DNA of 64,000 bases from Eledone cirrhosa (taxonomy: Eukaryota). This document shows, one piece after another, positions 28,120 to 62,333 of the stretch; the stretch's first letter is position 1, and every line of letters begins with the position of its first letter. The translations under genes and the position numbers were made by a program. The notes under the pieces were generated by a model. That model searched no databases, was not told where the DNA came from, and saw only the letters and a program-made list of their open reading frames with translations. The DNA is taken from positions 806,001-870,000 of the forward strand of contig OZ024762.1 in NCBI GenBank assembly GCA_964016885.1, given 5' to 3'.

Positions 28120-28189
28120 ATGGACGACATGAAGACAAATCTTCCGACCAAACTTAGCAAAGATTCTCTCTCCATTACTACACAATGTG
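28120..28189 (+). CDS. CCDC73: CCDC73-like coiled-coil protein, probable exon 1
   Basis: ATG MDDMKTNLPTKLSKDSLSITTQC(G)|gtcagt; phase 1 matches the next exon. Confidence 0.6.
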
Positions 28190-28270
28190 GTCAGTGAATT
28201 TCATTGAATTTCGTTTTTATTGTCGTGTACCTTCGATAAACATTTATTAAATTTGTTACACACACACACA

Positions 28271-28315
<45 letters not shown>

Positions 28316-28428
28316 GTCCAGCCAAAATGTCTACACACTTTGATTACTTATACAGACAATATTTATTAGAATACTGTTGAAATATGTATATATTTTGGGG
28401 GGACACACCGTATATATATCTCTCTCTC

Positions 28429-28461
<33 letters not shown>

Positions 28462-28553
28462 GTGTATGTATTATATATATATTAACATAAAGGTATTTCG
28501 TAATTATTTTTACTATCTGAGGGATGTCACACCAACACAGGTTGTTGTGTATG

Positions 28554-28593
<40 letters not shown>

Positions 28594-28723
28594 TGTAATG
28601 GTATATATATACATACATGTGTGTATGTATATATATATATACATACATGTGTGTGTATATATATATACATATACATGTGTGTGTATATATATATATACAT
28701 GTGTGTATATATATACACACATG

Positions 28724-28776
<53 letters not shown>

Positions 28777-29125
28777 CATACACAACAACCTGTGTTGGTG
28801 TGACATCCCTCAGATAGTAAAAATAATTACGAAATACCTTTATGTTAATATAATATATACATACGTGTGTGTATATATATATATATATATACACATACAT
28901 GTGTGTGTGTGTATATATATATATACGTACATGTGTGTGTGTATATATATATACATACATGTGTGTGTATATATATATATACATGTGTGTGTATATATAT
29001 ATATATACATACATGTGTATGTATATATATATACATACATGTGTGTGTATATAAATACATACATGTGTGTGTATATATATATATACATACATGTGTGTAT
29101 ATATATATATACATACATACATACA

Positions 29126-29162
<37 letters not shown>

Positions 29163-29168
<6 letters not shown>

Positions 29169-30123
29169 TGACGATCTGGTTCTTATAATAGAATCAGTAG
29201 AGGAGCTAGAGAACTGTTGCTATGGAAACAGCAGTTGGACTCAAGAGAACTGAGAGTGAACCTAGCTAAGACAAAAGTGTTGATGAGTAGAAAAGAGGAC
29301 AAAACCCTGATTCCGTCAGGGAAATGGCCATGTTCGATATGTGGGAAAGGAACTGGCATAAATTCTATAAAATGTACACAATGCAGATCTTGGGTACACA
29401 AGAGATGTAGCGGGATAGCAGGCAAACTAACAGGGAGAAATATGTATGCATTAGATGTATGTACAGGGAAATTAGACAGTAGAAGTCGCACTGATAGACA
29501 CATTTTTCAAACGCGAGAGGGCGCTATAGAAGTGGTGGATAGCTTCCGGTACCTAGGTGATCAGATTAGCAGGGGGGGGGGGGGTTCTGAGGCCATAGTA
29601 TCTAGAATAAGGACGGGTTGGAAGAAGTTGAGGGAGCTGCTTCCTCTGCTGATGAAGAAGGGTTTCTCCCTGCGTACGATATGATGCCTGTGTGAGGAGC
29701 GCGATGCTGCATGGTAGTGAGACATGGGCAGCAACTGCAGAGGATATGCATGGCTGGAGAGAAATGAGGCAAACATGGTCCGTTGGATGTGCAATGTCAA
29801 TGTGCATGAAAGATCAAGTATGGACAAGTTGAGGGTAAAACTGTATAAGAGGGATAAATTGTAGTGTGCGGGAGAGGAGACTGCGATGGTATGGACATGT
29901 GATGTACATGGAGGATGACTGCTGGGTGAGGAGGTAACAAAAAATCCCAGTAGAAGGAAGACCACGAAAAACATGGACGGAGGTGGTGAGAGCTGACCTC
30001 AGATCACTGAAGCTCACAGAGGAGATGACAAGGGACAATGGCAAATGGAGAGATGCTGTACTGAAGAGAACCTGTCCCACCCTTGCAAGCAGGGAAAAGT
30101 GGACGTAAAATGACGATGATGAT
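29163..30123 (+). mobile_element. 5'-truncated, frameshifted RTE-clade LINE
   Basis: YADD; WPCSICGKG..C..WVHKRCSG; FRYLGD; RIRTGWKK; GRPRKTW; (GAT)n tail. 3'-end copies at 43497-43632 and 47362-47610. Confidence 0.88.
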
Positions 30124-30310
30124 GTTAAGTATTTCCGTAGAAAAGGTAAAGGAAATAAGAGTGCTCTATGTATAGTACAGAGCTATTTAATTATATAATA
30201 AACAACACAGTATAATTATTCTATTACCAAAGGTTTCAGGAAACTTGATGATTCTTGCAGAAACATCTAGTTCATTCAACAGACAAAACAATTGTTTTGT
30301 CTTGGAAAGT

Positions 30311-30720
30311 ACAAAACAACACTATCACTCCATCATACAAAACAACACTATTACTCCATCATACAAAACAACACTATTACTCCATCATACAAAACAACAC
30401 TATCACTCCATCATCCAAAACAACACTATCACTCCATCATACAAAACAACACTATCACTCCATCATATAAAACAACACTATCACTCCATCATACAAAACA
30501 ACACTATCACTCCATCATACAAAACAACACTATCACTCCATCATACAAAACAACACTATCACTCCATCATACAAAACAACACTATCACTCCATCATACAA
30601 AACAACACTATCACTCCATCATACAAAACAACACTATCACTCCATCATACAAAACAACACTATCACTCCATCATACAAAACAACACTATCACTCCATCAT
30701 CCAAAACACTATTACTCCAT
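30311..30720. repeat. 26-bp minisatellite
   Basis: acaaaacaacactatcactccatcat. Confidence 0.95.
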
Positions 30721-30830
30721 CCAATTAAAGATTTGAATTAATTTACCTGTTTCCAGATATTTTCTGACAAATCATTGTTGGATATTAAGAGTGAATAAAC
30801 TACACAGGTGAAAATAAATTTGTGTTTCAG

Positions 30831-30964
30831 GTGAGAGATTAATGAATGAGGAACGGCAAATGTTATGTCTCTCAGAAGACAAGACAGGTGTATTTAATAC
30901 CAGTAATTATATGAGCATGCAACACACGTTACTGGAGATTGTGGAAGAATTGAAAGTTAGAAGG
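30831..30964 (+). CDS. CCDC73: CCDC73-like exon 2
   Basis: tttcag|..ERLMNEERQ..QHTLLEIVEELKVRR|gtaagt; resembles recalled human CCDC73 LLEALEELRMRR. Confidence 0.85.
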
Positions 30965-31341
30965 GTAAGTTGGAGGAACAAAATATATTTATTTAATCAT
31001 CATCATCGACATCATTGTCATCATCAACACCATCATCACTATCACCATGACTTTACAGAGTGTACTGGGTGTATAGCATGATAACACCACTACTACCACT
31101 TTACAGAGTGTACTGGGTGTATTTTATCATGATACCAGCACTAGAGAGGTTGTCATATACATGGTAAGACAGAACAGTCCTCTCTCTGTCCCATTAATCC
31201 TCTCTTACTAGAGAGGTTGTCATATACATGGTAAGACAGAACAGTCCTCTCTCTGTCCCATTAATCCTCTCTATCCTTTAAATATTTCTGTTTTCCTATT
31301 TTTAGTTGATGAAAAAAAAATCTTTAGATTTTCCTTTTCAG

Positions 31342-31413
31342 AAAAATGACTTTGAAAATGAAGAAAGGATTCAAGATTTGAGAAAAACCAATCTAGAACT
31401 GACCAAGAACTAT
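31342..31413 (+). CDS. CCDC73: CCDC73-like exon 3
   Basis: ttttcag|KNDFENEERIQDLRKTNLELTKNY|gtatgt; 72 nt. Confidence 0.85.
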
Positions 31414-31469
31414 GTATGTACTTATTGTCTGTACCTATTGTCTCCTATAAGTTATTTAGTTTAGGTATT

Positions 31470-31730
31470 TGGTAGGTGCTGGATCTTGTGGTGTTGGACC
31501 TGCGATCATAATGTTGCGGGTTCCATTCCTGGACTAGGTTGAGTGTTGAGTTGAGTTGTCTTCTTGAACAAAACACTTCATTTCATGTTGCTCCAGTATA
31601 CTCAGCTGAAAATATGTACCAGTAATAGCTGGGGGTTTAACCCTGCAATGGACTGGTGTCCTGTCCAGGGGGGGGGGGGGGGGGGGAGTCTTGAACTGTG
31701 TCACTTAATGCCATGGAAACTTGGATAAAC
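31470..31730 (+). mobile_element. CORE-type tRNA SINE
   Basis: gggttccattcc B-box-like sequence and cttgaacaaaacacttcatttc..gctccagt..ctcagctg core; reverse copies at 42850-42980 and 1245-1350. Confidence 0.65.
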
Positions 31731-31829
31731 TCTGTTAACCACACCTGCCATACCTTCATCACCTCGTTAATTATGTTGCCTCGTTAACAACATCACCTGG
31801 TATAACTAATTATTTTGACTATATTTCAG

Positions 31830-31937
31830 AACACAGAACAAAGAAATAATGCTAAGATTATTGAGCAATGCCAGAAACATGTTCAGGAGACGTACATTGA
31901 ATGTGAGCAGAAGATTTTGTTGAAAGGAGAAAATATG
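31830..31937 (+). CDS. CCDC73: CCDC73-like exon 4
   Basis: tttcag|NTEQRNNAKIIEQCQKHVQETYIECEQKILLKGENM|gtaaat; 108 nt. Confidence 0.85.
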
Positions 31938-31978
31938 GTAAATATATATTTATAGAATGAAATACAAAGTAGTTGAGA

Positions 31979-32427
31979 TGGTAAAGTTCATTTATAAGGT
32001 TGTTTTATATAACGACATTTCAATAAAGGAACTTTAACATTTAGCAGCATAGTGTATAAATGTTATTGAGACACGAGTAACATAATAATGATGTCAACAG
32101 CAGAAATTAGAGATGAAATGTATGTTTATTTTTGTTGTAGCACAAATAATATTTGTTAACTTGTATGGTTGAAGTTACACATAAAATGAGGTTACAAAAG
32201 GGAATGTGCCATTGTGCCGGAAAGCCGGCAGGTCAAAGTGCAAAATCTCACCGTCACATGTACGTGTTGCTGGTTCGAAGTTCCGGGTGCGAGAAAGAGA
32301 TTCTTCAAATCTTCGCGGGGAATCTCTCGCTCAGGGCACGTAGGGATATATCCTCTTCTACTGGCGTTGATTGGCTGAGCTGAGCCAAACCACGCACAGA
32401 GAAGCCCGCGGAATGTAGGTCACTACA
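31979..32427 (-). mobile_element. Possible solo LTR
   Basis: Minus strand reads TGTAGTG...CCA with CCAAT, a TATA-like box and AATAAA in order; CpG-rich; no clear TSD. Confidence 0.35.
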
Positions 32428-32502
32428 AACATCTCAACTACTTTGTATTTCATTCTAAATATTCAGTTCTTGAATGGAATTGCATCAATGTTTTATTGTA
32501 TG

Positions 32503-32560
<58 letters not shown>

Positions 32561-33181
32561 GTATATATTGAGTTAGAAACTCAAAATAGTCTCTTACAAT
32601 TAAATAGCTCAAGGAAAGAGATTTTTCCAAGCCGTAAATTATAATTGAATGTAAAAGAGAAATAAACACAGATATGCTAAACGATGATGATGATATAGAC
32701 TTATGTGTTCAAATCGTAAGGGACCAAGACCGCTAGGGTGAAAAAGATACTATCACCAATATTGGTCCTTTACGATTTGAACACATACGTCTATATATCT
32801 GTTTATTTCTCTTTTATATACAATTATAATTTATATATATATATACAGGGTGACCACAAAAACACTCCAACACAGTCCACCTACGTTGTTGCGGAGTGAA
32901 CGCCATCTTGAATTACACTGCCATCTAGTGGATCAAGTCAATTCTAACTCCATCATTTATAGTGAGTCCTGGGCTATCTGTTTCCTCTCTCTCCCCACAG
33001 ATCCTACAGAGCAGGCTAGACCCCTTCTTATCAATATAGTGTTTCATCCACTTCATTATAAGGGCTCGATTCTGTGCAGCCAGTTGTATTCCATCTGTAA
33101 CTTTGTTAAGGTCCCCTTTAACCAGTCCCATGTAAATTGTAGACCATGTATCTTGATTTCATGTTTCTTTTACCCCCTTAG

Positions 33182-33256
33182 GAAAAATATCGACTTTTTT
33201 ATCTCAACAAAGAAGAAGAAATTGCAGCTTTAAAAGAGGAAATAAAGAATTTACAG
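33182..33256 (+). CDS. CCDC73: CCDC73-like exon 5
   Basis: ccccttag|EKYRLFYLNKEEEIAALKEEIKNLQ|gtgttg; compare recalled human [25 protein letters not shown]. Confidence 0.85.
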
Positions 33257-34300
33257 GTGTTGTGTTATTAATTTATATTTATATATACAGGTGTTGTGTT
33301 ATTAATTTATATTTATATATACAGGTGTTGTGTTATTAATTTATATTTATATATACAGGTGTTGTGTTATTAATTTATATTTTTATATATGAAGTTGACC
33401 TGAAAAGTTCATAGGCTGAGCAAGAAGCTGTCATGAAAGGTGACCAAATGAGGTTTCTATTTCACCATAGTTCCCCTTGCGGTCCACAAACTTCTCCCAG
33501 CGGTGTTACAGTACTTGGACCCATTAGTAAAGAAGCTTTCACCGTTGAAGCCAAGGAAAACAATGCTCAATCTATTGCAAGATAGTTTATTTCATCATCA
33601 TCATCATTGTTTAACATCCATTTTCCAGGCTTGCATGGGTCAGACAGGTCCTCTGTGTTGAGAGACAAGTCTGACCAGAAATGGCCACACCCTACCTTGC
33701 TCCACGGGAACTGTCAATTTGGCCGGAGTTTTTACAGCTGGATACCCTCCCTAACACCAACCATATTTACTATATTAAAATTTCATACATTTAATATGTA
33801 TGCTTCACCTTTGGTTTCGGGTTCCAGTTATGGCCACCACTGAATAGTTGAGGAGCAGTTCCAATACTGGCCTCTTTCGTCAGGTGCTAGAACAGAATTT
33901 TGCCTTAGCACCTGATGAGACAGACCAGTCTTAGAACAGCTCCTGATCTAGACAATGGTGGCCATATCTGGACCCTGAACCCTAAGGTCTCACATACATG
34001 TTAATATATACTAATATATATATACTAATACGGCGAAGAATTTGTTTTGCAAGATTTTTGACGTGAAATCATGTGTTGAAACAAATATTGTTATATTTAG
34101 GGAGGGTCATATTGTTATAATATTACCAGAAATATAGTAAAACACACTCTCTCTTTGGTTTGGATTACATATAAATGTATGTATATGCACACACATACAC
34201 GTCAGCATATGGAAAAAATATGCTAGTGTATATAAACTTGTAGACCACACGAAGGAAAGGGGACTTGTAAGATATTTTATGTTTGTATATTATTTTCCAG

Positions 34301-34475
34301 CTTGAAAACTTTGGCTACCAAAAGCAACTTAAAGACCAGGAACAGAAAATTGAGTTACAAAAGATGATGGCGGAGCACCATGTGAAGCAAATATCTGAGG
34401 TGGAATCTAAATTTATCTCTGTTAATACACATGTTCAACAGTTGGGTCTGTCACAGAAGTCTTTGAAGGAAAATG
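34301..34475 (+). CDS. CCDC73: CCDC73-like exon 6
   Basis: ttccag|LENFGYQKQLKDQEQKIELQKMMAEHHVKQISEVESKF..SLKEN(V)|gtaagt; phase 1. Confidence 0.88.
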
Positions 34476-34940
34476 GTAAGTGGCTAACGGTGGTTATAGA
34501 GATGTTGGATCCATGCTAGGGTGAAAGATCGTCATTAAACAATGATTGGTTACAGGTATATATATATTGGTTGGAAAACTAGAGAGAGACATTGGATATA
34601 TTGGTTGGTTTGAGAACTAGAGAACTTTGCTACTTTATCCCTAAAAACTCTCTCAGCCCTAAACATCTTTAACCCTTTAGCATTTAAAGCAGCTGTATCT
34701 ACCATGAAAATACAATAGTATATATAGAGTAATGTAAATGTTATGTGAGATATTATGTGAGGTAAAGCCTTTACTGTGAAAATACAATAGTATATATAGA
34801 GTAATGTAAATGTTATGTGAGATATGTGAGGTAAAGCCTTTACTGTGAAAATACAATAGTATATATAGAGTAATGTAAATAGTAAAGGGTTAAATGATAA
34901 AATAAAAGTAGTTTTTTATGCCACGAAATGCAATAATTAT

Positions 34941-35657
34941 TTATTCCTGTAAATCCTTTAAACGGTTAATAACATGGGATTTTTTACTTTGTTGGGTAGC
35001 ATCCATTCTAAACCAACTCTCCGATTTATTTGGAAATTTTAATGACTGTTTTTCTTGTTTATGTCCCAGTTTTACATTTTCATTCACACAGTTTTGTTGT
35101 GGCTTTCGGTATTTTGTGTTTAGATTTGGCAACGTTAGTCTTTCTTTGTCACAAAATATGTCTTTGTTTACTTTAAAACATTTTAATTTTTCAGTCCCAT
35201 GCTCTGATCCCTGGTTTATATCTTGCCAAGGTCCTAAATTATTATCCTTCATTAGTTTTAAGTTTAAATCTCTCAACTCTTTTATCAATTCAAGTAAATG
35301 GTTTAATAGTTGTCTCGTAGTGAGTTCTTCGCTGCTAAAAGTCATACTTTCTTGTCGGGATGAATATATATTTAGTAGAATTTCTAAAACAGAATCTTTG
35401 ATTTTTTTACACTTTTTATGTTCCTTATCGAGTTGTTTTAAAACTGCCTTCAGTTTAGCTTGCCAATTATTTCTTTCAATTTGAAGACACAAACAGAACC
35501 TCTTCTCTAGTTCTTCATAAGGACTGCTCACAAGAACAGACTGGGTTCTCTTTAAAATATCAGGGTCGATGTGCCGTATTGGGGGCATCAGTTTACAACA
35601 TTCTGTCTTCTTTGTTCCTTTGTTTTTCAGTTTTGTTCCTTCAGAAATTCTTTTCAT
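34941..35657 (-). CDS. Nested antisense gene A, 238-aa uncharacterised coiled-coil protein (single coding exon)
   Basis: Non-repetitive ORF from caccATG (MKRISEG..); polypyrimidine/AG acceptor about 21 nt upstream (exon starts 35678); homologous to 40475-41653. Confidence 0.75.
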   Translation of the reverse strand: MKRISEGTKLKNKGTKKTECCKLMPPIRHIDPDILKRTQSVLVSSPYEELEKRFCLCLQIERNNWQAKLKAVLKQLDKEHKKCKKIKDSVLEILLNIYSSRQESMTFSSEELTTRQLLNHLLELIKELRDLNLKLMKDNNLGPWQDINQGSEHGTEKLKCFKVNKDIFCDKERLTLPNLNTKYRKPQQNCVNENVKLGHKQEKQSLKFPNKSESWFRMDATQQSKKSHVINRLKDLQE

Positions 35658-35829
35658 GGTGAGATTTAGAGAAATTATCTTTATTAAAAAATAGAGAGAG
35701 AGAAATAGAGAAAGGTTAATAGGTATTGTTCTCAAAATAAATAATATCAAAATCTCATAGATTCGATATTATGTGAGGTAAAGCCTTTACTGTGAAAATA
35801 CAATAGTATATATAGAGTAATGTAAATGT

Positions 35830-37093
35830 TATAATAATAATAATAATAATGAAATTATTGTGTAAAGTGCTCAGGTGCACTACAACTCATCAAAGGTGTA
35901 TGTATAGTACATAGAATAATACACAAATGTCAGGGAAGTGAATAGTGTATGAATCATGGTATACATGTGTGTATGTGTATGGAGGGGGAGAACATTAGCT
36001 GTAGTGTTGGCGGATCTCAGGAAGCATGGAGGCCTTAAAGGATGCAGTGTCTCGACAGCTAACAACTGATGCAGGTAGTTTGTTCCATGGAGGTTTTAAA
36101 GGATGCAGTGTCTCGACAGCTAACAACTGATGCAGGCAGTTTGTTCCATGGAGGTTTTAAAGGATGCAGTGTCTCGACAGCTAACAACTGATGCAGGCAG
36201 TTTGTTCCATGGAGGTTTTAAAGGATGCAGTGTCTCGACAGCTAACAACTGATGCAGGCAGTTTGTTCCATGCTTCAGCAACTCTGAGCGTGAAAAAATG
36301 TTTCCGAAAGTCATGGGAACTGTGCTGTTTTCTGACTTTGTGGGCATGCCCACGTGTGTTAGACACATGGAAATCAAAAAGGTACTCAGGGTTGTTGTTG
36401 GCAAGATGGTTAACAATTTTGTGAGTGTTTACCAAGTCAGTTGCCAGGCGTCGGAGCTTCAATGTATCCATGCCCAGGGAAGCAAGGCACTCAGAGTATG
36501 GTAGATGCCTGATGGAGGGTATTCGCTTGGTTGCACGTCTCTGAACAGTTTCCAGGCGGTCAATGTTCTGAGCAAGATAGGGGTTCCAGACTGGTGATGC
36601 AAATTCTAAGTGTGGCCGCACCATAGCCATGTACAGCCTTAAATAGATATCTGGAGAACGGCTGACAAAGGTCTTGCTGAGTGATGCTAAGATACCCTCG
36701 GCCCTCTTGACAATTTTAGAGACGTGCTTCGTCCAACGCAAATCACTGCTGACCGTAATGCCCAGGTCACGTTCACAAGAAGACTTCTTGATATTAGTGC
36801 TGTGGAGGGAGTATGTGGACGCTGGGTTTTTACTCCCAAAATGCATGGTGGTGCACTTGTCCACAGCTAGCTTGAGTTACCAGTCTGAGATCCATTGTTG
36901 CATTGTGTCCAGGTCAGACTGCAAGCAAGATCTATAGTGCTCAGGATCTGTCCTTTTTATCTCAAGGTACAGCTTGATGTCATCTGCGTACTTTAGTACC
37001 GTGGCATTCTTTAAGTTGGCATCTATGTCATTAATATATGCCACAAACAAAAGGGGGCCAAGAACAGATCCCTGTGGTACACCAGATGACATC
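35830..37093 (-). mobile_element. 5'-truncated CR1-clade LINE
   Basis: SGVPQGSVLGPLLF, YADD, RPHLEFASPVWNP, VQRRATK, TRGH, FFTLRV..WNKLP; frameshift near 36870; (TTA)n tail. 3' ends also at 39815-39910 (-) and 49745-49815 (+). Confidence 0.92.
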
Positions 37094-37104
37094 TCATATG
37101 GTGA

Positions 37105-37775
37105 GGAGTGAGATATTATGTGAGGTAAAGCCTTTACTGTGAAAATACAATAGTATATATAGAGTAATGTAAATGTTATGTGAGATATTATGTGAGGTAA
37201 AGCCTTTACTGTGAAAATACAATAGTATATAGAGAGTAATGTAAATGTTATGTGAGGTAAAGCCTTTACTGTGAAAATACAATAGTATATATAGAGTAAT
37301 GTAAATGTTATGTGAGATATTATGTGAGGTAAAGCCTTTACTGTGAAAATACAATAGTATATAGAGAGTAATGTAAATGTTATGTGAGGTAAAGCCTTTA
37401 CTGTGAAAATACAATAGTATATAGAGAGTAATGTAAATGTTATGTGAGGTAAAGCCTTTACTGTGAAAATACAATAGTATATATAGAGTAATGTAAATGT
37501 TATGTGAGATATTATGTGAGGTAAAGCCTTTACTGTGAAAATACAATAGTATATATAGAGTAATGTAAATGTTATGTGAGATATTATGTGAGGTAAAGCC
37601 TTTACTGTGAAAATACAATAGTATATATAGAGTAATGTAAATGTTATGTGAGATATTATGTGAGGTAAAGCCTTTACTGTGAAAATACAATAGTATATAG
37701 AGAGTAATGTAAATGTTATGTGAGGTAAAGCCTTTACTGTGAAAATACAATAGTATATAGAGAGTAATGTAAACG
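37105..37775. repeat. 60/71-bp tandem array inside a piggyBac-like MITE
   Basis: tatgtgaggtaaagcctttactgtgaaaatacaatagtatatatagagtaatgtaaatgt. Confidence 0.95.
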
Positions 37776-40019
37776 GTAAAGGGTTAAGGTAGAGAAATAA
37801 ACTTACCTAAATGACGGAAGTCTGTCGTCACCTGGTTACTGAGAATTGGACACAGGTAACTCAGGTGTTGCATCATTAATTAGCTGAGGTATTATATCAC
37901 TAATTACCTCACCTGTTGCAACGGATTTTTTTTTTTTTTAATTTGCAGGTGGAAACTTCATTTATTCCTGAGAGACCAATACTGCACCTAGTGTTTAGTA
38001 TTGTGTTAGTATTATTGGGGGGGGGGGGGGTAGTGAGGCTGTCGTGGGGGGTACAGGTTGTCTTAGTATTATTGGTGGTGCTGGGGGTTGTGTTGGTGGT
38101 AGAGGTGGGTGTGAGGTGATGCTGGGATGGAGGTTGTGATGGGGTGTTGGTGTTGTTGGTGGTGGTGGTGTTGTTGTTGTTGGTGGTGTTGTTGTTGTTG
38201 TTGTTGGTGGTGTTGTTGGTGGTGGTGGTGGTGGTGGTGGTGTTGGTGTTGTTGTTGTTGTTGTTGGTGGTGTTGTTGGTGTTGGTGGTGGTGGTGTTGT
38301 TGTTGTTGGTGGTGGTGTTGGTGGTGGTGGTGTTGTGGGATTAGATCCCATGTTGACAGGTAGGGAAACATTTCTCTTTGAAGATTGTTATAGATTTTAT
38401 TATCAGTGGTGGTGGTGGTGGTGGTGGTGGTGGTGGTGGTGGTGGTGGTGGTGGTGGTAGTAGTATTCCATTAAAACCTAATCAGTTGATGTCATGTAAC
38501 AATGGGATTTATTATTTATAAGTCATTAGATATATTGATTCCTTCTGGGGGGTGGGGGCTGGGTGGGCGTTCGTTCTGATCTCCTTTTTACATTATATTG
38601 TCAAGTAGTTATCTTGATAATTATAGGAAAGAAAATAATTTACCCCCCCCCCCCACTATCTCCTCTTTCTTTAGGTATTCCCTAATCAGTTTGTTTTATT
38701 TAAACATCATCATCATCATCATAATCACTGTGTAATGTCTATTTTCCATGGGTTTGATAGGTTGATGTAAACTAAATGACTAATTCTAGTTTTTAAAAAA
38801 AAACATCAACGGAGACAACCTAGAAATGATATTGATTTCCCCCTCCTGATTCCACCCCCCTGGTTATTCCAAGCCTATTCCAAGTGGTTCTACCTGGAGT
38901 GACTCTGACCTACCTCCGAGCTACACACTCTATTAAGTAACGTTACTCCAAAGACCCTTCGGAGGAACCCCATTTTGACCACTTGTATTCGCAATCATAT
39001 ACAAAAGGGCCAACTGGCTATTTAGAAATAGCCAGTTTTATCCCTGTCCATGGTCTTGGACCTTGGTAAGAAATTCATATTTCTATTCAGAGGACCCCAC
39101 TTTCAATGGGTACAGGATGAAGCTGAAGCATATATACAGTATGCCCCCCTCACACTGTAAAGTGGTCGTGTAGGTGTCACAACAAAAATCACCCAGTCCT
39201 CATTACATGAGGTTGGCATTAGGAAGGACATCCAGCCATAGGAACCAAGCCAGAATCAGTTCTGTATGAGAAACACATGGTCACCTGACCTACCCACAAC
39301 AGGACAACTTGTCTAACCCATGCTAGAGTGGGAAAATGGACATAAAAAGGTAATGGTGATGATGATGATTCAGAATAAAACTTCAAGCTGCTCAAATCAA
39401 GAAAACAACAACAAAAAAAAAACAGAAAAATAAACCCCTCCAAAAGTATCCCAAAACATACAAAATATACAATAAAAAGCTTTTAACATGTTTGTTAGAA
39501 GAGCGAGAGGTGGAGAGCTATTGTCCTGTTGTAAAACCTAATGTATCATATAATGGGGACTTCTGTTGACAGCATACATAGTGGGGTAACAACAACAACT
39601 GATTGATGAGAAATCAATAAATTTATTTGACAGTCTATTGTAATTTGATGACTGGATGTAGAGACAGTTTTGTTATTGATGAGGCGATTGGTTGGGTCTT
39701 AAGTTGATAAAGTAGGCTGGCTTTCATATATAGACTTAGACAGACAGACAGAGAGACATATTAATGGGGAGATGTGTTAGGTCTTAAGTTGATAAAGTAG
39801 GCTGGCTTTCATAAACAATAATAATAATGAAATTATTGTGTACAGTGCTCAGGTGCACTACAACTCATCAAAGGTACATGTATAGTACATAGAATAATGT
39901 ACAAATGTTTATAGGCTTAGACACACACACAGACAGACATAGAGAGACACAGACACTCACACAAACATAGACATAAACACTCACACACATATATATATAT
40001 TTATACACAACTTTCTTGA

Positions 40020-40245
40020 GACCGTGCCAGGTGATGTTGGCTGTCATCAGGTCCTTCCGGGACGTCGCCAGGTGATCCTTGGGCAACCCCGCCTCCGTTT
40101 ACTGCCAGGCAGAGTCCAGTTCATCGCTGTTTTCGAATGCCGTTTATTTGGCAGACGCAGAATATGGCGGCCAGCCAGACAGCACCGACGCTCCATGACC
40201 CCTCTCTGTAGCGTCCACGACTCGGCTGAGCTCCGCCATTTCAAC
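40020..40245 (-). mobile_element. RTE LINE 3' fragment
   Basis: GHILRLP..KTAMNWT..KRRRGCPRITWRR-like; similar decayed fragments at 60000-60300, 2590-2780 and 49500-49740. Confidence 0.7.
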
Positions 40246-40474
40246 AGCTAGATCCGAATTGTTGAAACAGCCGACTGGGTCCTGAATCTTTTCCTATTAC
40301 CCACTCTACTACCCCAAATATTGAGTACTCTGGTGGGTTATGGTCTACCTTGTTTTTACCACACGCTATCTGATATATGAGAGGCTGCTGTTTATAAATT
40401 AAATTTACCTTTAAACAAATTCTTTCTGCTCCCTGTTTCATGTGTAATTTGTTTGTTGTTTGTCTTCCCAAATT

Positions 40475-41653
40475 TCATGTTGATAATCTTCTGGCCCTTA
40501 TTAGTTTAATAGGGGGAAGATTATATTGAGCTTTGATTGTATTAACTAGGGGCTCATCTGTAGGGACACTACACTCCCTAATTGCTGTATATTCACTGTT
40601 AGGGGTCATTTTGGTAAACCTCATCATAGTTTCATTCAGGTTTACTTGGTTACTTACAAGAAACATTTTACCATTTTTATCAGTTTGTGTATTATTATGG
40701 CAGCCCAGTGATTCTTGTGACTCTGCTTCTTTTAAACCCTCACAAGAAGTGACATTTTTAAGGGAGCTGTTACATTCCGATCCTGTTTGGAATCTACTTG
40801 TTTGATGCCTGTTTCTAACTCTCCCATTGTTGTTGTTGTTGCTGTTAGCTAACATTGAATTTATTGCGGCTGTTGTTGAATCGATGGAATATTTGTTGTA
40901 TTTTTTAATAAAAGCACTTTTAGGATTAGAATTTGGGTTTGGATTAGATTCTTTCTGGATTTTATTGGTTGTAATCGAACTGGAATAAAGAAACATCCTT
41001 TGGAAATTCTCTTTATCTTTTTTAAGTTCCGATATAATCGAACGTAATTCTTGTTCCTGTTTCATCGCTTCTGACTGAACTTGTTTGGCTGATTGTAGTT
41101 CCCTCTCTAGGAACTGGTGTATACATTCAACAAGGTTGACCTTCATGTCAGGTTTTCTCTCCACCAAACAAAGACACTGCAAACGTTCTTGGATCAAAAA
41201 CTGCAATAATTCAGTCAAGAGATCGACATATTCTATAAAAACATTTTTCTTCTTATTTACCGAGAATGCTTGTTTTGAATAATTAATGGAACACGTCTCA
41301 AGACAGTTCAGTAAAGCTTCTAGGCTGTCTGTGAGGATTTTATCTGCAATTAATGCCTCCTTTCGATAGATCTCTATCTCCTTCAGTGCTGTTTGGAGTT
41401 TAGACTGCCAGCCTTGACGTTCATATTGTATTTGGGCGGTAAGCCACTTGGAAAGTTCAAATGCACTGCGGCGCCAATACTGCCCTTGTAGACCTCGTCC
41501 TGTGGTCTGCATAAACTGGTTAACTCGAGCTTGTATGTCACTGTCAGGTTTTGTGGTGCTAGCTGGTTGTAATATTGGTTGTTCCTGTAGAGCGGAGTAA
41601 CCATCTTTCTTCACACCATTGTTCCCATACTGTGATGGTATCTTCTCAGTCAT
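40475..41653 (-). CDS. Nested antisense gene B, 392-aa uncharacterised coiled-coil protein (single coding exon)
   Basis: 1179-nt non-repetitive ORF; acceptor tatttccag with exon starting 41712; shares the QxERxxWQxKL motif with gene A. Confidence 0.85.
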   Translation of the reverse strand: MTEKIPSQYGNNGVKKDGYSALQEQPILQPASTTKPDSDIQARVNQFMQTTGRGLQGQYWRRSAFELSKWLTAQIQYERQGWQSKLQTALKEIEIYRKEALIADKILTDSLEALLNCLETCSINYSKQAFSVNKKKNVFIEYVDLLTELLQFLIQERLQCLCLVERKPDMKVNLVECIHQFLERELQSAKQVQSEAMKQEQELRSIISELKKDKENFQRMFLYSSSITTNKIQKESNPNPNSNPKSAFIKKYNKYSIDSTTAAINSMLANSNNNNNGRVRNRHQTSRFQTGSECNSSLKNVTSCEGLKEAESQESLGCHNNTQTDKNGKMFLVSNQVNLNETMMRFTKMTPNSEYTAIRECSVPTDEPLVNTIKAQYNLPPIKLIRARRLST

Positions 41654-41882
41654 GCCTCACTGATCTCTTCTCCTTAATATTGGGGCTTCTTCTTCTTCTA
41701 CAATCATATCTTCTGGAAATAGACAAATAACTACGTTAGATTGTAAACAGGGAACTCACACACACACACACAAACATACGCCCACAAACATACATTCAGT
41801 TTTTTCCCTTCAAACTACTGGAGTTTATACACATTTATGAAGCTAGTTGAAGATATGTATATATATATATATATATATACAT

Positions 41883-41917
<35 letters not shown>

Positions 41918-42269
41918 GTATATCAAATTGTTTGTGATTCTTTTATTGAATGGTTTAGATGAAAACTGTGCAATATATGACACATGTTGCAACACGCCAC
42001 CATTAAATGATAGGAGGTGGAGGGGGGGGGGGGTCTTCCTGCCTTTCTTTTGTTAATGACACTTCAACTTCACTGTTCTGATTGACATTAAATTAACGAG
42101 CAACAACATGTGGTGGCGGTGGTGGTGGAGATGGGTAGTGGTGGTGGGTGTGGTAGTAGTGGGGGTGGTAGTAGTGGGGGGGAGAAGGTCAGGAACATAT
42201 TTAAAAGGATTATGCACTGAACAGACATTAATATATATACTCTATACAGTATACATATCTATCTATCTA

Positions 42270-42349
<80 letters not shown>

Positions 42350-42699
42350 ATGTGAGTTTTATTGTAGTACAATAAAGCAATGCAGATATCGGATAAGAAG
42401 CACTCTACAGTTTGTGGGACTGGAGTATACATAATATATAAGAACAAAAGATGGTTAAAGGAGTTCCATGTATTTTATTATGCGCATTTCAAAAACAAAT
42501 ATCATCATGCAATAATATTTGTGTTTTCACAAATTATTTTCCTCCTGTTTTATCTGATGAAAACACAAATATTATTGCATGATGATATTTGTTTTTGAAA
42601 TGCGCATAATAAAATACATGGAACTCCTTTAACCATCTTTTGTTCTTATATATTATATATATATATATACTATATATATATATACTATATATATATATA

Positions 42700-42743
<44 letters not shown>

Positions 42744-43084
42744 TCATCATTTTACGTCTGCCTTTCCCTGCTTGCAAGGGTGTATACATATATATGTGTG
42801 TGTGTGTATGTATATACACAGTATACATACATACACACAGCTCATTGTTCCCAGCTGAGTAGACACTGGAGCAACTGTGAAATAAAGTGTCTTGCTCAAG
42901 GACAGAATGCACCACCAGGAACTGAAGTCACGACCTGACGATTATGAGCTGAATACCCTAACCATAAAGTCTCGCACCTTCAGACCTGCATATTACACCT
43001 GTCTCTATATTACACCTGCCTCTACATCTTAATTAATTGGTTGACATAAGCATACACCTTTGTTTTGATAACCACCTCAGTCTG

Positions 43085-43145
<61 letters not shown>

Positions 43146-43280
43146 GTATATATGTATATATATATATACATATATGTATATATATATATACATATATACA
43201 TATATGTATATATGTATATATATATATACATATATGTATATATGTATATATATATATATATATACATATATGTATATACA

Positions 43281-43357
<77 letters not shown>

Positions 43358-43361
43358 GTAT

Positions 43362-43463
<102 letters not shown>

Positions 43464-43823
43464 TGTATATACATATATGTATATATATGTATATACAGAC
43501 CTCAGATTGCTGAAACTCACGGTGGAGATGACGAAGGACCGTGACAAGTGGAGAGATGCTGTGCTGAATAAGACCCGTCCCACCCTTGCAAGCAGGGAAA
43601 AGCGGACGGAAAATGTTGATGATGATGATGATAATATATACAACGAGAGATAGAGCGAGTTATAGTGTACTTGACCACTGTACACAATAATTTTCATTAT
43701 TATGTATATATGTGTGTGTGTGTATGTATATAAATATATATATACATATATATATATTTTGCCTCCTGTCATTTCACTTCATAATATATATATATACACA
43801 CACACACACACATATATATATAT

Positions 43824-43862
<39 letters not shown>

Positions 43863-45777
43863 GTAGAACACTGGAAGGTAATATCTGTAGTGGTAAAGCA
43901 CTCAGTCCATGGGACAAGTTAGTGCACCATATCGAGAACATTTGTTTCAGGAGCTGAGGGTCTGCTAAGGTGAAACAATTGTTCTCGGTATGGTGAACTA
44001 ACTGTTGTGTTACCACTTCTATATATATATATATAAAACTATTTCAGTCATATTACACCATAAATAGCTCAAAATTTATTTCAAAAGTTATATTTAGGTG
44101 TAGATATTTACAGTGCATTGCAAGCAAAAATATATTTTAGAATATAATTTCATCTTCAAATTTGTACTTATATCGTGTGTGTGTGTGTGAATATGTATAT
44201 GTGTGTATATCTATATCTATCTGTCTATCCCTATATATATATATATACACGTGTGGATATCTATATGTATGTCTGTCTCTTCCTACATATATATATATAT
44301 ATATAAATATATATCATGATGATATATATATATATGTGTGTGTGTGTGTACATATGTTTTTTTATATGTATGTGTGAGTGTAGATATTTAAATCTCTCTC
44401 TCTCTATCCCTATATACATACATCTCTCTCTCTATATATATATATATGTGTGTGTGTGTATAGATGTAAGTGTGTGTGTGTGTATACACTTCCTGTTATA
44501 GATGAAGAAATAAAGACTAACCTTGCTGTGAGATGTTATCTTCTGACAGTTACTCTTATTTCTCCAATACTTTCTAGATTGTTCTTATAGCTTCCTAGAA
44601 GGACTGACTACTGAGACAGTCACACCTGTCTGGGTTCTTTCCTGTGTAGGGCACACGTCTCATTTCAACATGTCCCCAGAAGGACTGACCTTGAAAATAA
44701 TTATACCTGTCTAGACTTGCTTCTTTTGTAGGGCACACTACATTATCTTAATAAAGGACTACATATATGTGTGTGTGTTGGTAGAGTGGTTGGATCACCA
44801 TTCTGCCTGTCTATACTTCTGGGTAGGTAGCTGGGTAGATAGGGAGGTAGTGTAAAGTAGTTGATGTTAGGAAGGCCATCCAGCCATAGAAATGAAGCCA
44901 AAATATTATCACTAATGGATTATATATGTATGGTCCCGTAAATACGGTGTTTCTTGGGCATTTGTAAACCTCGCAGAGCCCATCCCTCTCCAGGATAGAA
45001 AGTGAGCGAGAAAGGAAATGAGAAAGAGTTATAGAGGTCCCCAGTACTGGTGTATATATATATATCACCATCTTCATCATCGTTTAACGTCCGTCTTCCA
45101 TGTTAGCATGGGTTAGACGGGTTTGTCTCACTTGAGGCAAGATTGGACGGGTGACTGTGTCTCGCTCATATATATATATAAAGAATTTGAAGTTTTAAAA
45201 CCACGACAACGCAGGTTTGGACGGACAATAATTAAATTGTTTTTTTTACCTTAATTTATTCAGATGTCCTGATATTTCGAGATTAATATCTCTTCTTCCG
45301 AGGAAAATAAAGGAACTACTCCAGTGTCCGATGTGGCTTGCTATACCATATATATATATATGGAGAGAGGAAATAAGAAAGAGATATAGAGGAAGAATCA
45401 ACCCCAGTATTAGACTGGTACTTGTTTCTTATCAACCTCGAGTGGATGAAAGGCAAAGTTGACCTGAGAGAGCGGAGAACCAGAATAAATCCTTTTGATA
45501 TTCTAATGACCACCTTCCTCGCTTAAATATAGTCTCTCATAAACAGTAAATAATTTATTGAAACATTTTCGGTCTTTAACAATTATAAGATCTAACAAGA
45601 CCCATGTATGTTTAGTATAGATAAACATATTGTATATATGGTATTGTTATATATAAATATATAGTATATGGCAGCATGGACAATATAGATATATATACAT
45701 ATAACATATTGTATATGAGAGTATATATAATATAGTTATATATAAACATATAGTATATGACAGCATGTACAATATGG

Positions 45778-45852
<75 letters not shown>

Positions 45853-45853
<1 letters not shown>

Positions 45854-46015
45854 CGTATTTCCCGGCACTGAAGACACCACTTCGTCCTCGAAGACACACC
45901 CTAATTTTGACAACCAAAATTTTGAAAAAGAAATAACCAACCCTCAGCCTCCAGGACACACTGTAGATTTGAGACTTATTTTAGGGAATAAGTAGCATCT
46001 TCGACGGGAATACGG
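45853..46015. mobile_element. Tc1/pogo-like MITE
   Basis: TIRs ccgtatttcccg / cgggaatacgg within (TA)n. Confidence 0.7.
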
Positions 46016-46163
46016 TACATATATATATTATTAGTACAGATTAAAGTTTAAGCAAAGAACTTCTGCTTTCCCCCAGGATCTTCTGGAGATCCCTTAACAG
46101 GGTGAAAGCAGAAATTCTTTGCTTGGACTTTAATCTGTACTAAATAAATAAATATTTGCTCTA

Positions 46164-46239
<76 letters not shown>

Positions 46240-47013
46240 ATCCTTATCGAGCCCTCGTTGGATTTTGGTCTTCATAATTCTTCTTCTTGGTTGTCCATCG
46301 TAAACGATGATGACATCTTATATATATATACCCATATATGACCATATATATATATATATATATATACACGCATACATAAGCATATACATGTATGGGTGTG
46401 AGCATATATATATATGTAAGTATATCTATGTAAATATATGTGAGCATATATATATATGTGTGTGTATATATGTATATATATGTGTATGCGTATATATAAT
46501 ATGGTTATTTTACACAGACATACAGTATATATAATATACATATATAATATATTATACATATATTGTATATACTTTTATATATACATGTGTATATTAATGT
46601 AGAAAGTGTTACCTACCTGAGTGGTCAGCTTTCATCTATTGACAACTCCTTTGTCACACAGGTACTATAGTTTATTACTACTACTACTACCACTACTGCT
46701 ACTACTACTACTACTACTACAGCTACTACCACTACTACTACTACAACAACTACCACTACTACTACTACCACCACTACAACAACTACCACTACTACTACTA
46801 CCACCACTACAACCACCACCACTACTACTATTAGCTGCAGTTTATTACAGCAACAACAACAATAATAATTGTTTCTACATTTTGGCACAAGGTCAGCAAT
46901 TTGAAGGGAAGAGGGGGAAAATCGGTCAAATTGACCCCAGTACATTACTGGTACTTTAATTTATTGCCCATGTAAGGTTGAATTTGTGCATGTTTGTATA
47001 TATATATGTTGGC

Positions 47014-47122
<109 letters not shown>

Positions 47123-47134
47123 CATATATATACA

Positions 47135-47191
<57 letters not shown>

Positions 47192-47661
47192 GAGCAGTTC
47201 CTGTATGAGCAAGGCATGGTCAGCCGACCAGACACTGCCCACAACAGGACAACCCGTCTAACCCATGCTAGCGTGGAAGAACGGACGTAAAACGGTGATG
47301 ATGATGATGATGATATACATACATATATATATACATATATACATACATATATATATATACACGTGGTATGGACATGTGATGTACATGGAGGGGTACCGCT
47401 GGGTAAAGAAATGCCAAGAAATCTCAGTGGAAGGAAGACGTAGTAGAGGAAGACCACGAAAAAGATGGGCGGAGGTGGTGAGAGGTGACCTCAGACTGGT
47501 GAAACTCATGGAGGAGATGACGAAGGACCTTGACAAGTGGAGAGATGCTGCGCTGAAGAGGACCCGTCCCACCCTTGCAGGGAAAAGTGGACGTATGATG
47601 ATGATGATGATACACACCTACATATCATCATCATCATCATCATCATCAATATATATATACA

Positions 47662-47763
47662 TACAGGGTGTCCCCCAAAAATGTATACACACTTCAACAG
47701 CATGATAATAAATATTGCCTGTACAGGTAATCGTGTGTATACATTTTTGAGGGACACTCTGTA
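47662..47763. mobile_element. Tc1/mariner-like 100-bp MITE
   Basis: ta-cagggtgtcccccaaaaatgtatacac...gtgtatacatttttgagggacactctg-ta; related copy at 28311-28412. Confidence 0.75.
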
Positions 47764-47804
47764 TATATGTGAAAGTGCATGGCTTAGTGGTTAGAGTGAT
47801 ATTT

Positions 47805-47836
<32 letters not shown>

Positions 47837-48262
47837 GGTGGTGGTGGTAGTAGTAGTGGTGGTGGTTGTAGTAGTAGTAGTGGTGGTGGTGGTGGTTGTA
47901 GTAGTAGTGGTGGTGGTTGTAGTAGTAGTAGTGGTGGTGATGGTAGTAGTAGTAGTAGCAGTAGTAGTAGCAGTAACAGTAGTAGTAGTAGTGGTAGTAG
48001 TAGTAGCAGAGGTAGTAGTAACAGTAGTAGTAGTAACAGTAGCAGTAGTAGTAGTAGCAGTAACAGTAACAGTAGTAGTGGTAGTAGTAGTAACAGTAGC
48101 AGTAGCAGTAGCAGTAGCAGTAGTAACAGTAGTAGTAGTAGCAGTAGCAGTAGTAACAGTAGCAGTAGTAGTAGTAGCAGTAACAGTAGTAGTAGTAACA
48201 GTAACAGTAGTAGTGGTAGTAGTAGTAACAGTAGCAGTAGTAGTAACAGTAGTAGTAGTAGC
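47805..48262. repeat. (GTA/GTG)n trinucleotide tract; similar tracts at 540-800, 38140-38465, 46675-46860
   Basis: Simple repeats. Confidence 0.95.
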
Positions 48263-48474
48263 CATGTTATTGTTTTCATTGTATAATTGTTATTGTATCT
48301 TACTCAATTATTGGATTAACAGCTTTCATTTATCTACACAGCTGTGTGAGTGTATAGGGGTTTGTGTATATACACACACATACATATATATATATAAATA
48401 CACACACACATATATATATATATATACACACACTTCACATATATATATATATACACACACACACGTATATATAT

Positions 48475-49082
48475 ATATATATACATACATGCACACATAT
48501 ATATATGCACGTATCGGTTTACCGAACATTTATTATAATGCTCGGTTTGTTTGTTTGTAAACAAACAAACAGCCCGAATTACACCGTACAGTGTTTAGGC
48601 AACCACGTCACCTTTTTGTTCAACACTGACACAGGAACGCTGTACTAGTTTCAAGCTTATTAGCTATCGTCAGCATCGTATACCTTCCTGCCAGATGGTT
48701 GAACGTCTGAAAGTATATACTTTCCTTATGCATATTAACGGCTGAGCAGCCTTATTTGCATATCGAGTGAGTTCAGTCGGCCGGGCACACCGAAAACGAT
48801 AAATTTCTATTCCATTTATTGTTATGCATAAGGAAAGTATATACTTTCAGACGTTCAACCATCTGGCAGGAAGGTATACAATGCTGACGATAGCTAATAA
48901 GCTTGAAACTAGTACAGCGTTCCTGTGTCAGTGTTGAACAAAAAGGTGACGTGGTTGCCTAAACACTGTACGGCGTAAGTTGGGCTGTTTGTTTGTTTAC
49001 AAACAAACAAACCGAGCATTATAATAAATGTTCGGTAAACCGATACGTGCATATATATATGTGTGCATGTATGTATATATAT
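48475..49082. repeat. Long inverted repeat, ~260-bp arms, 88-nt spacer
   Basis: 48475-48734 is the reverse complement of 48823-49082 with about 4 mismatches. Confidence 0.95.
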
Positions 49083-49383
49083 ACATACTACTGTACGTCT
49101 GTATACATATATGTATGTACGTATACATACATACATACTTACATTTAAGTAAGTGCCGTACTAAGAGTGAGAAATGAAATTTCGTTTCATTCTATTCTAT
49201 ATATATATATATATATATATAACAAATTTAATATAGAAATGGCTTCTTCAGAACTAGAACTGTTTCATTCGAAGGAAACAGTTCTAGTCCTGTAGAAGCC
49301 ATTTCTATATTAAATTTGTTGTATACACTCTACTATGTATTGAGTACCTTACTTACTGTGGTTACCCCCGATGGAACCCAGAA

Positions 49384-49432
<49 letters not shown>

Positions 49433-51141
49433 GTGTGTGTGTCTTGTGTAATTATATACACTGGAACCTCAGTTGACAAACTTAATTCATTCCTGCCAGC
49501 ATTGAGATCAGAAACAAGACACAAAAGATTGCGAGACGCTGTGCAAATAACTTCTGGTTACAATTATGTGAAGGTATGCAAGTGTCATTTGACACAGATA
49601 ACATCCGTGGAATGTATGAGGGCATCAAACAAGCCATTGGCCCAACCCAGAGCAAGATAGCTCCACTTAAAACCAGAAGAGGTGAGGTCATCAAAGGTAA
49701 AAGAGAGTAGTTGGAGAGATGGGTGGAAGATTATTCTGTACTATACATGCACCTTTGATGAGTTGTAGTAACCCTGAGCATTGTACACAATAATTTCATT
49801 ATTATTATTATTATTACTGCGAACTCTACGCCAAGGAAAACAGCATCTCAGAGACACCTTCCTTGTCCAGACTCTCCTGCATTCTGTCATATTTTTATTC
49901 TGATGTCACTAATAACTAACCTCTGTTTGGTGGTGCATTCTTCTCAGGGAGAGTCAATACTTCTGCCTGGGAGATCAGTGGTTCTGCTTCAGTAGTGACT
50001 TGGTCTACATGGACCCTGTCCAAGCCTTGCTAGCAGGGAAAACAGACATTAATATGACAATGATGATGATACAAAACTGATTATTCACACCATTGCTACT
50101 CTGGGTTTCCCACAGACAACAAGTTAGACATTGCTACTTGTCAGTGCTGGGAGGAGAGAACAATCCTGCAAGACATGAGGGTTCACAACATTGAGATACA
50201 ATCTTGTAGGAGACCAGCTAAACCTACATAGGTGTGACCTGTAACAACACCCTAGAAACCTGTAGGTATGTATTTGTGTGTATATATATATATATGTGTG
50301 TGTATTTGTGTATATATATATATATATGTGTATGTATATATATATATATATGTGTGGAAGTATATATTTGTGATCAAATTAAATCTATGTATGTATATAT
50401 GTATATATATGTATGTGATTGAATTAAATCTAAGTATGTATGTATATTGAAGTAAATCTGCTACTGACTACCAAGTAATTACTTTACCTGTTCACAGAAG
50501 GAAGCACTTCTTTCACCTGACTTGTCTACACATGTCTAAATATATATTGTCATTTATTGCCCTCAAATACCTGCATACTTCAATGTTATTGACAAAACCA
50601 CATTTTATCTGAGTTACTTTTGTTGATAAACCCTAGAACCTCAGTTCACAAACTTGATTCATTCCTGAAGGGCGTTTGTCACCTGAAATGTTTGTAATAT
50701 ATATATATACATATATAATATATGTATATATATAGTCCAGAAATAGCCGTCGAAACGGCTTGAGCTCTGCCGTCGGGGTCATACTTTTTCCTATTTCCCA
50801 CTCTACTACCCTAAGTATTGAGTACTCTGGTGCGTTATGATCCATCTGGTTCCTTACCACAATTCCTTTGTTATATATGTATATATGTAAATATATATCC
50901 ATCTGATACCTTATGACGTAGAGTGATTACATTTGATTACACCATTATTGGTCGATTGCTTGGATCAACCAACACTGATTACTGAAACAAATATACATGT
51001 CTTCATCAACACAGCACCATCTCTTGTGGCCCTTTGTTATCTCTGTTGGCAATGTTAGTTTCTTAGGGTCAGTCTTCACTACGTCCCAAGTCTTCCTGGG
51101 TCAGCCTGGTTCATTGATTGTAGCTCTACGGCTGTTAATGG

Positions 51142-51585
51142 TAACTATACTAACCCTAACTATACTAACTCTAACTATACTAACCCTAACTATACTAACT
51201 CTAACTATACTAACCCTAACTATACTAACTCTAACTCTAACTATACTAACCCTAACTATACTAACTCTAACTATACTAACCCTAACTATACTAACCCTAA
51301 CTCTAACTCTAACTATACTAACCCTAACTATACTAACTCTAACTATACTAACTCTAACTATACTAACCCTAACTATACTAACCCTAACTATACTAACTCT
51401 AACTATACTAACCCTAACTATACTAACCCTAACTATACTAACTCTAACTCTAACTATACTAACCCTAACTATACTAACCCTAACTATACTAACCCTAACT
51501 ATACTAACTCTAACTATACTAACCCTAACTATACTAACCCTAACTATACTAACCCTAACTATACTAACTATACTAACCTTAACCC
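51142..51585. repeat. 15-bp telomere-like minisatellite
   Basis: taactatactaaccc / taactatactaactc. Confidence 0.95.
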
Positions 51586-51793
51586 ATATTTCAACATCTC
51601 TTCCCAGCCCAGAAACAATAAAACAAGACATGAATCGTTCTTTAAACAAGTTTTATCTCGTTCATTGTATTTTATTATATTCTAACTTCTCCTCTATAAC
51701 TTACATTTCTTGCCCTCAGACAAAAGCTACACAACCCACTCTATATATATATATATACACACACACATATATATGTATATACATATATATATA

Positions 51794-51824
<31 letters not shown>

Positions 51825-52035
51825 ATGTATGTATGGGTTCTATCGAACATTAATAACAATGTACAATTTGTTTGTAAACAAACGACCCATTTGTATATGT
51901 GTGTATATATATATATGTGTGTGTGTGTATATATATATATATATGTGTGTATATATATATATGTGTGTGTGTATACTGACATTTATGTATCAGCTGTGCT
52001 AGGGCGAGAAATAAAATTCTTTTTTATATATATAT

Positions 52036-52076
<41 letters not shown>

Positions 52077-52094
52077 CACCCTTATATATAGTAA

Positions 52095-55087: not shown

Positions 55088-55130
<43 letters not shown>

Positions 55131-62289: not shown

Positions 62290-62328
<39 letters not shown>

Positions 62329-62333
<5 letters not shown>

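Follow-up and report, generated by a model that had tools for sequence, protein, structure and literature searches.

The 64,000-nucleotide stretch of Eledone cirrhosa DNA analysed here (the window; positions 806,001 to 870,000 of contig OZ024762.1, assembly GCA_964016885.1) carries two open reading frames (ORFs), A and B, which lie on the minus strand within a single large intron of a plus-strand host gene, and which are very probably old paralogues, from the short and long branches respectively, of a lophotrochozoan protein family. Both ORFs are present as first described, each with its quoted motifs and each free of coding introns. Genes nested antisense in introns are ordinary in animals. 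The original prediction placed the pair antisense in intron 6 of CCDC73, and both the antisense arrangement and the sixth coding intron stand, as six host coding exons join stop-free and then run in phase into the exon at 55345. The name of the host stands less well, because it derives from a single Pfam match, that of exon 6 to PF15818 (CCDC73), which is its best family but stays under the cut-off (E=0.0013, 17 bits versus 27), and scanned singly, host exons 2, 3, 4, 5, 7, and 8 give no PF15818 match; we therefore call the host CCDC73-like. Coordinates are collected in Table 1.

Table 1. Features of the nested locus, in window coordinates (UTR, untranslated region; LINE, long interspersed nuclear element; MITE, miniature inverted-repeat transposable element).
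Feature	Position	Strand	Basis
Host gene (CCDC73-like), coding exons 1-6	28120..34475	+	
Host coding exons 1-3	28120-28189, 30831-30964, 31342-31413	+	
Host coding exons 4-6	31830-31937, 33182-33256, 34301-34475	+	
Host intron 6, holding both A and B	34476..55344	+	
Host coding exon 7, in phase with exon 6	55345..55550	+	
ORF A, 238 amino acids, short-subfamily member, family domain at about residues 28-135, without C-terminal finger	34941..35657	-	
Leader of A, 21 nt, predicted acceptor to ATG	35658..35678	-	
Predicted 5' UTR intron of A, about 60 nt without the inserted repeat block	35679..37806	-	Inference
Candidate upstream non-coding exon of A, last base (tag/gtaagt)	37807	-	Prediction only
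ORF B, 392 amino acids, long-subfamily member, without C-terminal finger	40475..41653	-	
Leader of B, 59 nt, after predicted acceptor	41654..41712	-	
Candidate upstream donor for B (cag/gtaggt)	46617	-	Sequence match only
Inserted block: TTAA-bounded MITE-like repeat, 60-72 nt tandem expansion, split by 5'-truncated LINE	35722..37787	-	
Complete TTAA-bounded MITE-like copy, 50 nt past the stop codon of A	34670..34892	-	

The splice signals proposed for the two genes are present in the DNA. An AG acceptor lies 21 nucleotides (nt) 5' of the ATG of A (predicted exon start 35678) and another 59 nt 5' of that of B (predicted exon start 41712), and the predicted donors GTAAGT and GTAGGT directly follow positions 37807 and 46617. 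The 21-nt spacing of A recurs in a distant, complete short-subfamily gene with a finger on the 5.1-kb contig L001 (positions 1883-3562), a piece of animal DNA in a 'marine metagenome' assembly. Nearly all of the 2.1 kb between the donor at 37807 and the acceptor of A is taken up by a TTAA-bounded repeat that encloses a LINE. Removing this block leaves an intron of about 60 nt, which lends the donor indirect support. The coding frame of A holds 238 open codons where the other two frames hold 23 and 29 stops, a length that 2000 simulations of 2 kb with matched composition never reached (maximum 177 codons), and the family core residues D31, D33, Q59, E61, R62, N63, W65, and D77 are invariant in a nine-row alignment. 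We regard A as probably a working gene. A retrocopy origin of A was considered; A has no poly(A) tail and retains the predicted 5' intron, and its lack of coding introns may reflect either a loss in A or a gain in its relatives. At the 3' end of A, an AATAAA at 34940-34945 on the minus strand overlaps the stop codon, with just 50 nt of unique sequence before the next repeat. Upstream of B, an in-frame ATG just past the acceptor opens a 16-codon frame (41707-41657, minus strand) that ends at a TGA two codons ahead of the ATG of B; this may be an upstream ORF, or an N-terminal extension since lost.

The paralogy of A and B is supported by a shared N-terminal helical domain (D-x-D-I ... Q-x-E-R-x-x-W-x-x-K-L) whose likeness exceeds chance. 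BLASTP aligns the two with 27/86 identities (E=1e-6), and hhalign returns a probability of 62 (E=7.5e-5). On a profile of 11 B-like proteins A scores 13.9 bits, a value matched by none of 5000 full, 5000 local, and 5000 heptad-keeping shuffles (highest of all 15,000: 12.3 bits).

The domain recurs well beyond cephalopods. A profile of seven sequences, searched against 1.84 billion representative proteins, returned 66 family members at E<=0.001; sources or names were obtained for 26 clusters, nine of these with species names, and the named members come from Octopus, Saccostrea, Pecten, Littorina, Haliotis, Bulinus, Pomacea, and Lingula. Judged by sequence, the family spans at least bivalves, gastropods, cephalopods, and one brachiopod, which overturns the earlier description of the genes as lineage-specific. 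The closest named relatives of B are its orthologues in O. bimaculoides (LOC106882262) and O. sinensis (LOC118767712), both 'uncharacterized' in RefSeq, which share 73% BLASTP identity with B over the whole length and 94% over residues 25-120, and which likewise lack the finger; further relatives of B stand at 45-71% identity. Compared with three octopus-like orthologues, B is 92-94% identical over residues 25-120 and 59-63% in the tail, which suggests that the helical domain is the part of B that selection keeps. The claim that the genes evolve fast fits A, whose end branch is 2.83, and fails for the shared domain of B. One O. sinensis protein is common to at least four RefSeq accessions, as would fit alternative UTR exons.

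By the searches made, the family is undescribed. Pfam gave nothing above cut-off on A and B, and coiled-coil noise only on sets of seven and 63 relatives, none of which reached cut-off; six proteins run against NCBIfam yielded one match, of 15.7 bits versus a cut-off of 300, and a PDB sequence search with alignment A3 yielded one chance match only. The original statement that no known family is recognisable is upheld by these searches, with the rider that the Octopus orthologues of B are already annotated, without a family name. The ESM Atlas held no usable match to whole P0003, and a search of metagenome and viral contigs with alignment A8 found no related loci. In the openly accessible literature, searches by gene identifiers, by CCDC73 with cephalopod or with nested gene, and by 'CHORD-like' found no paper naming the family, and the O. 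sinensis identifier is absent from the readable supplements of PMC11202624 and PMC9712504. Existing labels on single members find no backing in Pfam: one of two Lingula copies (P0030 and P0119, 99% identical, on same-sized contigs) is mislabelled 'mediator subunit 26', and an abalone member (P0023) is labelled 'flagellar attachment zone protein 1-like'.

Three groups can be discerned within the family, namely a short group (326-374 amino acids), a long group (490-720 amino acids among mollusc members), and a third that includes Lingula. On profiles of the short, long, and third groups, all built without A and B, A scores 34.4, 7.3, and 6.2 bits, and B scores 40.3, 138.0, and 56.4 bits. In a tree of 43 rows (44 were picked from about 70 representatives, and one was dropped for a missing motif; most fragments and five split-domain proteins were omitted), A falls with eight short rows (support 100/99) and B with 14 long rows (96/84), and a clade uniting A, B, and the four proteins closest to B is rejected by the approximately unbiased test (p-AU 0.00027). 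The original proposal that a lineage-specific gene was duplicated in tandem is contradicted by these placements. As both subfamilies hold non-cephalopod molluscs, with named gastropods in the short and long groups, named bivalves in the long group, and Haliotis in both, the duplication would be older than the split of cephalopods from other molluscs. Five long-subfamily proteins of 791-1311 amino acids (P0037, P0038, P0040, P0054, and P0069) have the helical domain split by an insertion of 180-300 residues.

From N- to C-terminus, family members consist of the helical domain, a coiled coil, a disordered stretch, and the finger. The pattern C-x2-C-x13-C-x2-H..W-x-C-C-x8-C-x4-H occurs in 61/67 proteins, a count inflated by the presence of the finger in the search profile; the six without it comprise one full-length octopus-like protein and five apparent fragments. 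No finger or remnant was found in A, in B, or in the six frames of the window, and from their sequences A and B are truncated family members. Among the nearest relatives of B, the finger is kept in the sisters P0003 and P0005, and gone in P0001, P0002, and P0008. The finger is carried by the other members of both the short and the long group, which makes two separate losses likely, one in A and one in B; since the closest outside relatives of B keep it, the loss in B probably falls on the octopod side. The finger of the P0005 cluster keeps all eight ligands and misses nine hairpin-loop residues, possibly a partial decay in a cephalopod-like lineage. An AlphaFold model of full-length P0016 from 40 rows is confident in two parts, long helices spanning 25-231 and, at 455-517, a small beta domain (predicted local distance difference test score, pLDDT, 72.5); a model from seven sequences, with a pLDDT of 39, was not used. 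The structural check suggested with the original prediction returned nothing more specific than generic coiled coils: Foldseek against PDB gave no match at E<=0.001 for the whole-protein model, and a VIA wide fold search gave a best Z of 7.0. Such whole-protein searches are filled by coiled coils and say nothing on the fold of the finger.

Four weak searches with the finger itself lead towards CHORD. In one its top match is CHORDC1 (2yrt; E=0.39), with the ligands in register; RAR1 (2xcm) is matched at E=0.096-0.39, and the ESM Atlas places BTK and CHORD clusters at 0.90. Pfam CHORD (PF04968) reaches at best E=0.32 and 12.1 bits (gathering threshold 24.6), in one of 13 proteins, and none of 63 at E<=0.01. 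The HSP90-contact residues of RAR1 (F187, H188, F204, F207, and M208) are not kept in the one weak alignment to 2yrt, in which W194 is retained, the histidine is replaced, and the helix is shortened. We use 'CHORD-like' only, because the matches are sub-threshold and the HSP90-contacting histidine and helix are not kept; the finger of the relatives appears, by its ligand pattern, CHORD-like rather than a CHORD.

The explanation that we favour, at about an even chance, is that A and B are octopod copies of the short and long genes which have shed the finger, and which would form a coiled-coil scaffold in which the helical domain is weakly predicted to join A to B. A tandem duplication older than the parting of cephalopods, gastropods, and bivalves would have given rise to the short and long branches, which would have remained linked since. 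Proteins of full length would oligomerise through the helical domain and the coiled coil while their finger, predicted to hold two zinc ions, would bind a partner, which would make them adaptors; short and long subunits may pair through their helical domains, so that in other molluscs the fingers recruit the partner, and the octopod A and B would keep just the oligomerising half. Pairing was modelled with ESMFold2 from A(22-140) and B(28-222), as the median of three runs with three controls. The interface score (ipSAE, interaction prediction score from aligned errors) was 0.54 for the heterodimer versus 0.02 for the best control, with contacts agreeing to at least 69% and a partner pLDDT of at least 69, a pass graded 'weak', since only 5/78 solved complexes, but all four passing mismatches, scored at or below 0.60.

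Several further points weigh against this explanation. Passes at the level of 0.54 are more often wrong than right unless the pairing is likely beforehand, and the grading covers no close relatives; the pass may simply reflect paralogous coiled coils of a family that homodimerises instead, and the predicted heterodimer, taken alone, we place well under an even chance. The end branch of A is 2.83 and its best identity 23%, which makes its placement less sure than the supports imply, and the short group was chosen by eye after its likeness to A was seen. Equal longest contigs (345,947 for both long P0021 and short P0049; 835,868 for both long P0082 and short P0113) suggest that long and short genes share one contig in two other animals, but show neither order, distance, adjacency, nor nesting. 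The short gene in L001 has two phase-0 coding introns where A has none, and neither a long gene nor a CCDC73-like exon occurs within 1.9 kb upstream or 1.6 kb downstream of it. Neither two word-index searches nor the 66 profile matches yielded an orthologue of A, although the word-index search with the short-subfamily alignment returned only P0074 despite seven further known members in the query, so that the word-index blanks are weak. Finally, every CHORD match lies below threshold.

In a bolder version of this explanation, spiralian adaptors with a new two-zinc finger of CHORD-like type would act as obligate short-long heterodimers, encoded by a pair of genes linked since the Cambrian; octopods would have lost both fingers and kept the scaffold alone, perhaps with a role in sperm or cilia beside CCDC73. 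As a whole we consider this version unlikely. A nested gene need not share the role of its host, and a role in sperm or motile cilia, drawn from the host gene alone, is a guess. CCDC73 is reported in mouse and human cilia in PMC12403265, which also lists CFAP73 in its structure and may confuse the two names.

The alternative that fares best, and which we rate as possible if somewhat doubtful, accepts the same ancestry and holds that A and B act apart, as homo-oligomers or with other partners, their linkage being a leftover of duplication. Tandem duplicates commonly stay linked without interacting, the weak support for the heterodimer may mirror family likeness, and identity between A and B is down to about 31% over 86 residues. 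Set against this are the pairing controls, at or below 0.02, and the disappearance of the same domain from both genes in the same lineage, which a shared complex would explain. It is rather improbable that only B works, with A the decaying remains of the short gene. The long end branch of A, the loss of part of its coiled coil and of the entire finger, the failure of the word-index and profile searches to find an orthologue, and the repeat insertions at both its sides would suit a relic; the open frame, unmatched in simulation, the eight invariant core residues, and the acceptor spacing shared with L001 would not.

A cephalopod-specific orphan, duplicated in tandem within the intron, would account for two neighbours on the same strand that both lack coding introns and a finger. 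We find it very unlikely, given that bivalves, gastropods, and a brachiopod all have named homologues, and given the rejected clade of A and B, from which only a long-branch artefact could rescue it. We give still less credence to a lophotrochozoan HSP90 co-chaperone family like CHORDC1/RAR1, with A and B as finger-less regulators: the finger has its eight ligands ordered as in CHORD and shares W-x-C-C with it, but the CHORD-invariant histidine aligns to tyrosine, the helix of Phe204, Phe207, and Met208 is shortened (eight versus 15 residues between ligands), the finger is single and unaccompanied by a CS domain, and A and B lack one entirely. That the ORFs derive from a transposon (LINE ORF1 or gag) is scarcely credible, for although LINE ORF1 proteins have coiled coils and LINE and MITE-like repeats adjoin A, no transposon Pfam family matches A, B, or 63 relatives, each Octopus species has one cluster member, the window holds no second copy, the tree follows named animal groups, and L001 carries spliceosomal introns, all in keeping with the original statement that no transposon motifs are present.

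The repeats around A belong to a wider set in the window. A short TTAA-bounded family with terminal inverted ends, which we take to be piggyBac-like, occurs at 6780-7135, 10071-10239, 25735-25926, and 55669-56111 as well as at the two copies beside A (34670-34892 and 35722-37787); its 5' part grows into tandem arrays of 30-72 nt, and one copy is split by a LINE. This LINE fragment (36000-37100, minus strand) is 5'-truncated, encodes reverse transcriptase (RVT_1, E=1e-11) with one in-frame stop, and ends 3' in a 61-nt tandem repeat; a 95-nt tail akin to its own lies at 39814-39908. On the plus strand, an ORF at 62159-62749 with a GIY-YIG match at the Pfam cut-off (E=1e-4) is likely part of a Penelope-type element.

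The value of these findings is as a lead on function rather than a new mechanism. They give a common identity to genes left 'uncharacterized' by RefSeq in oyster, scallop, abalone, and octopus, and define a family, present in molluscs and a brachiopod, whose CHORD-like finger is divergent. What looked like a cephalopod orphan would be an old gene minus its most conserved domain, which bears on counts of cephalopod novelty genes. A itself seems absent from public protein sets.

Several known systems invite comparison. Like other antisense intron-nested animal genes, A and B are free of coding introns and sit in a large intron, on the strand opposite to the host gene, an arrangement that is common; they differ in that two anciently diverged paralogues occupy one intron. 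The spiralian-specific genes of Wu et al. (2020; PMC7441323), such as lophotrochin and trochin, are likewise old, apparently clade-restricted, and without a named domain, but the motifs of the present family occur in 0/37 oyster sequences of Supplementary Data 1 inspected by eye, some of them given to 400 characters. The BTK motif (PF00779) has the H..W-x-C-C..G-C half in common with the family finger and is found in 13% of the 52 members of the nearest Atlas cluster (0.90); the finger differs from it in having a second set of four ligands and no associated PH domain, and Pfam BTK matches none of 63 proteins (E<=0.01) or of 13 (E<=10). CHORD (PF04968; RAR1, CHORDC1/Morgana, and melusin) offers a further parallel. 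PMC2935968 gives the RAR1 ligand order as C,C,C,H,C,C,C,H, and the finger of the relatives of A and B has the same eight-ligand order, together with the C-x13-C-x2-H and C-x4-H spacings and the W-x-C-C motif of CHORD. Where CHORD has spacings of x4, x14, and x15, however, the family finger has x2, x24, and x8, and where CHORD proteins carry tandem CHORDs with a CS domain, full-length family members carry a single C-terminal finger without a CS match, which in A and B is absent altogether.

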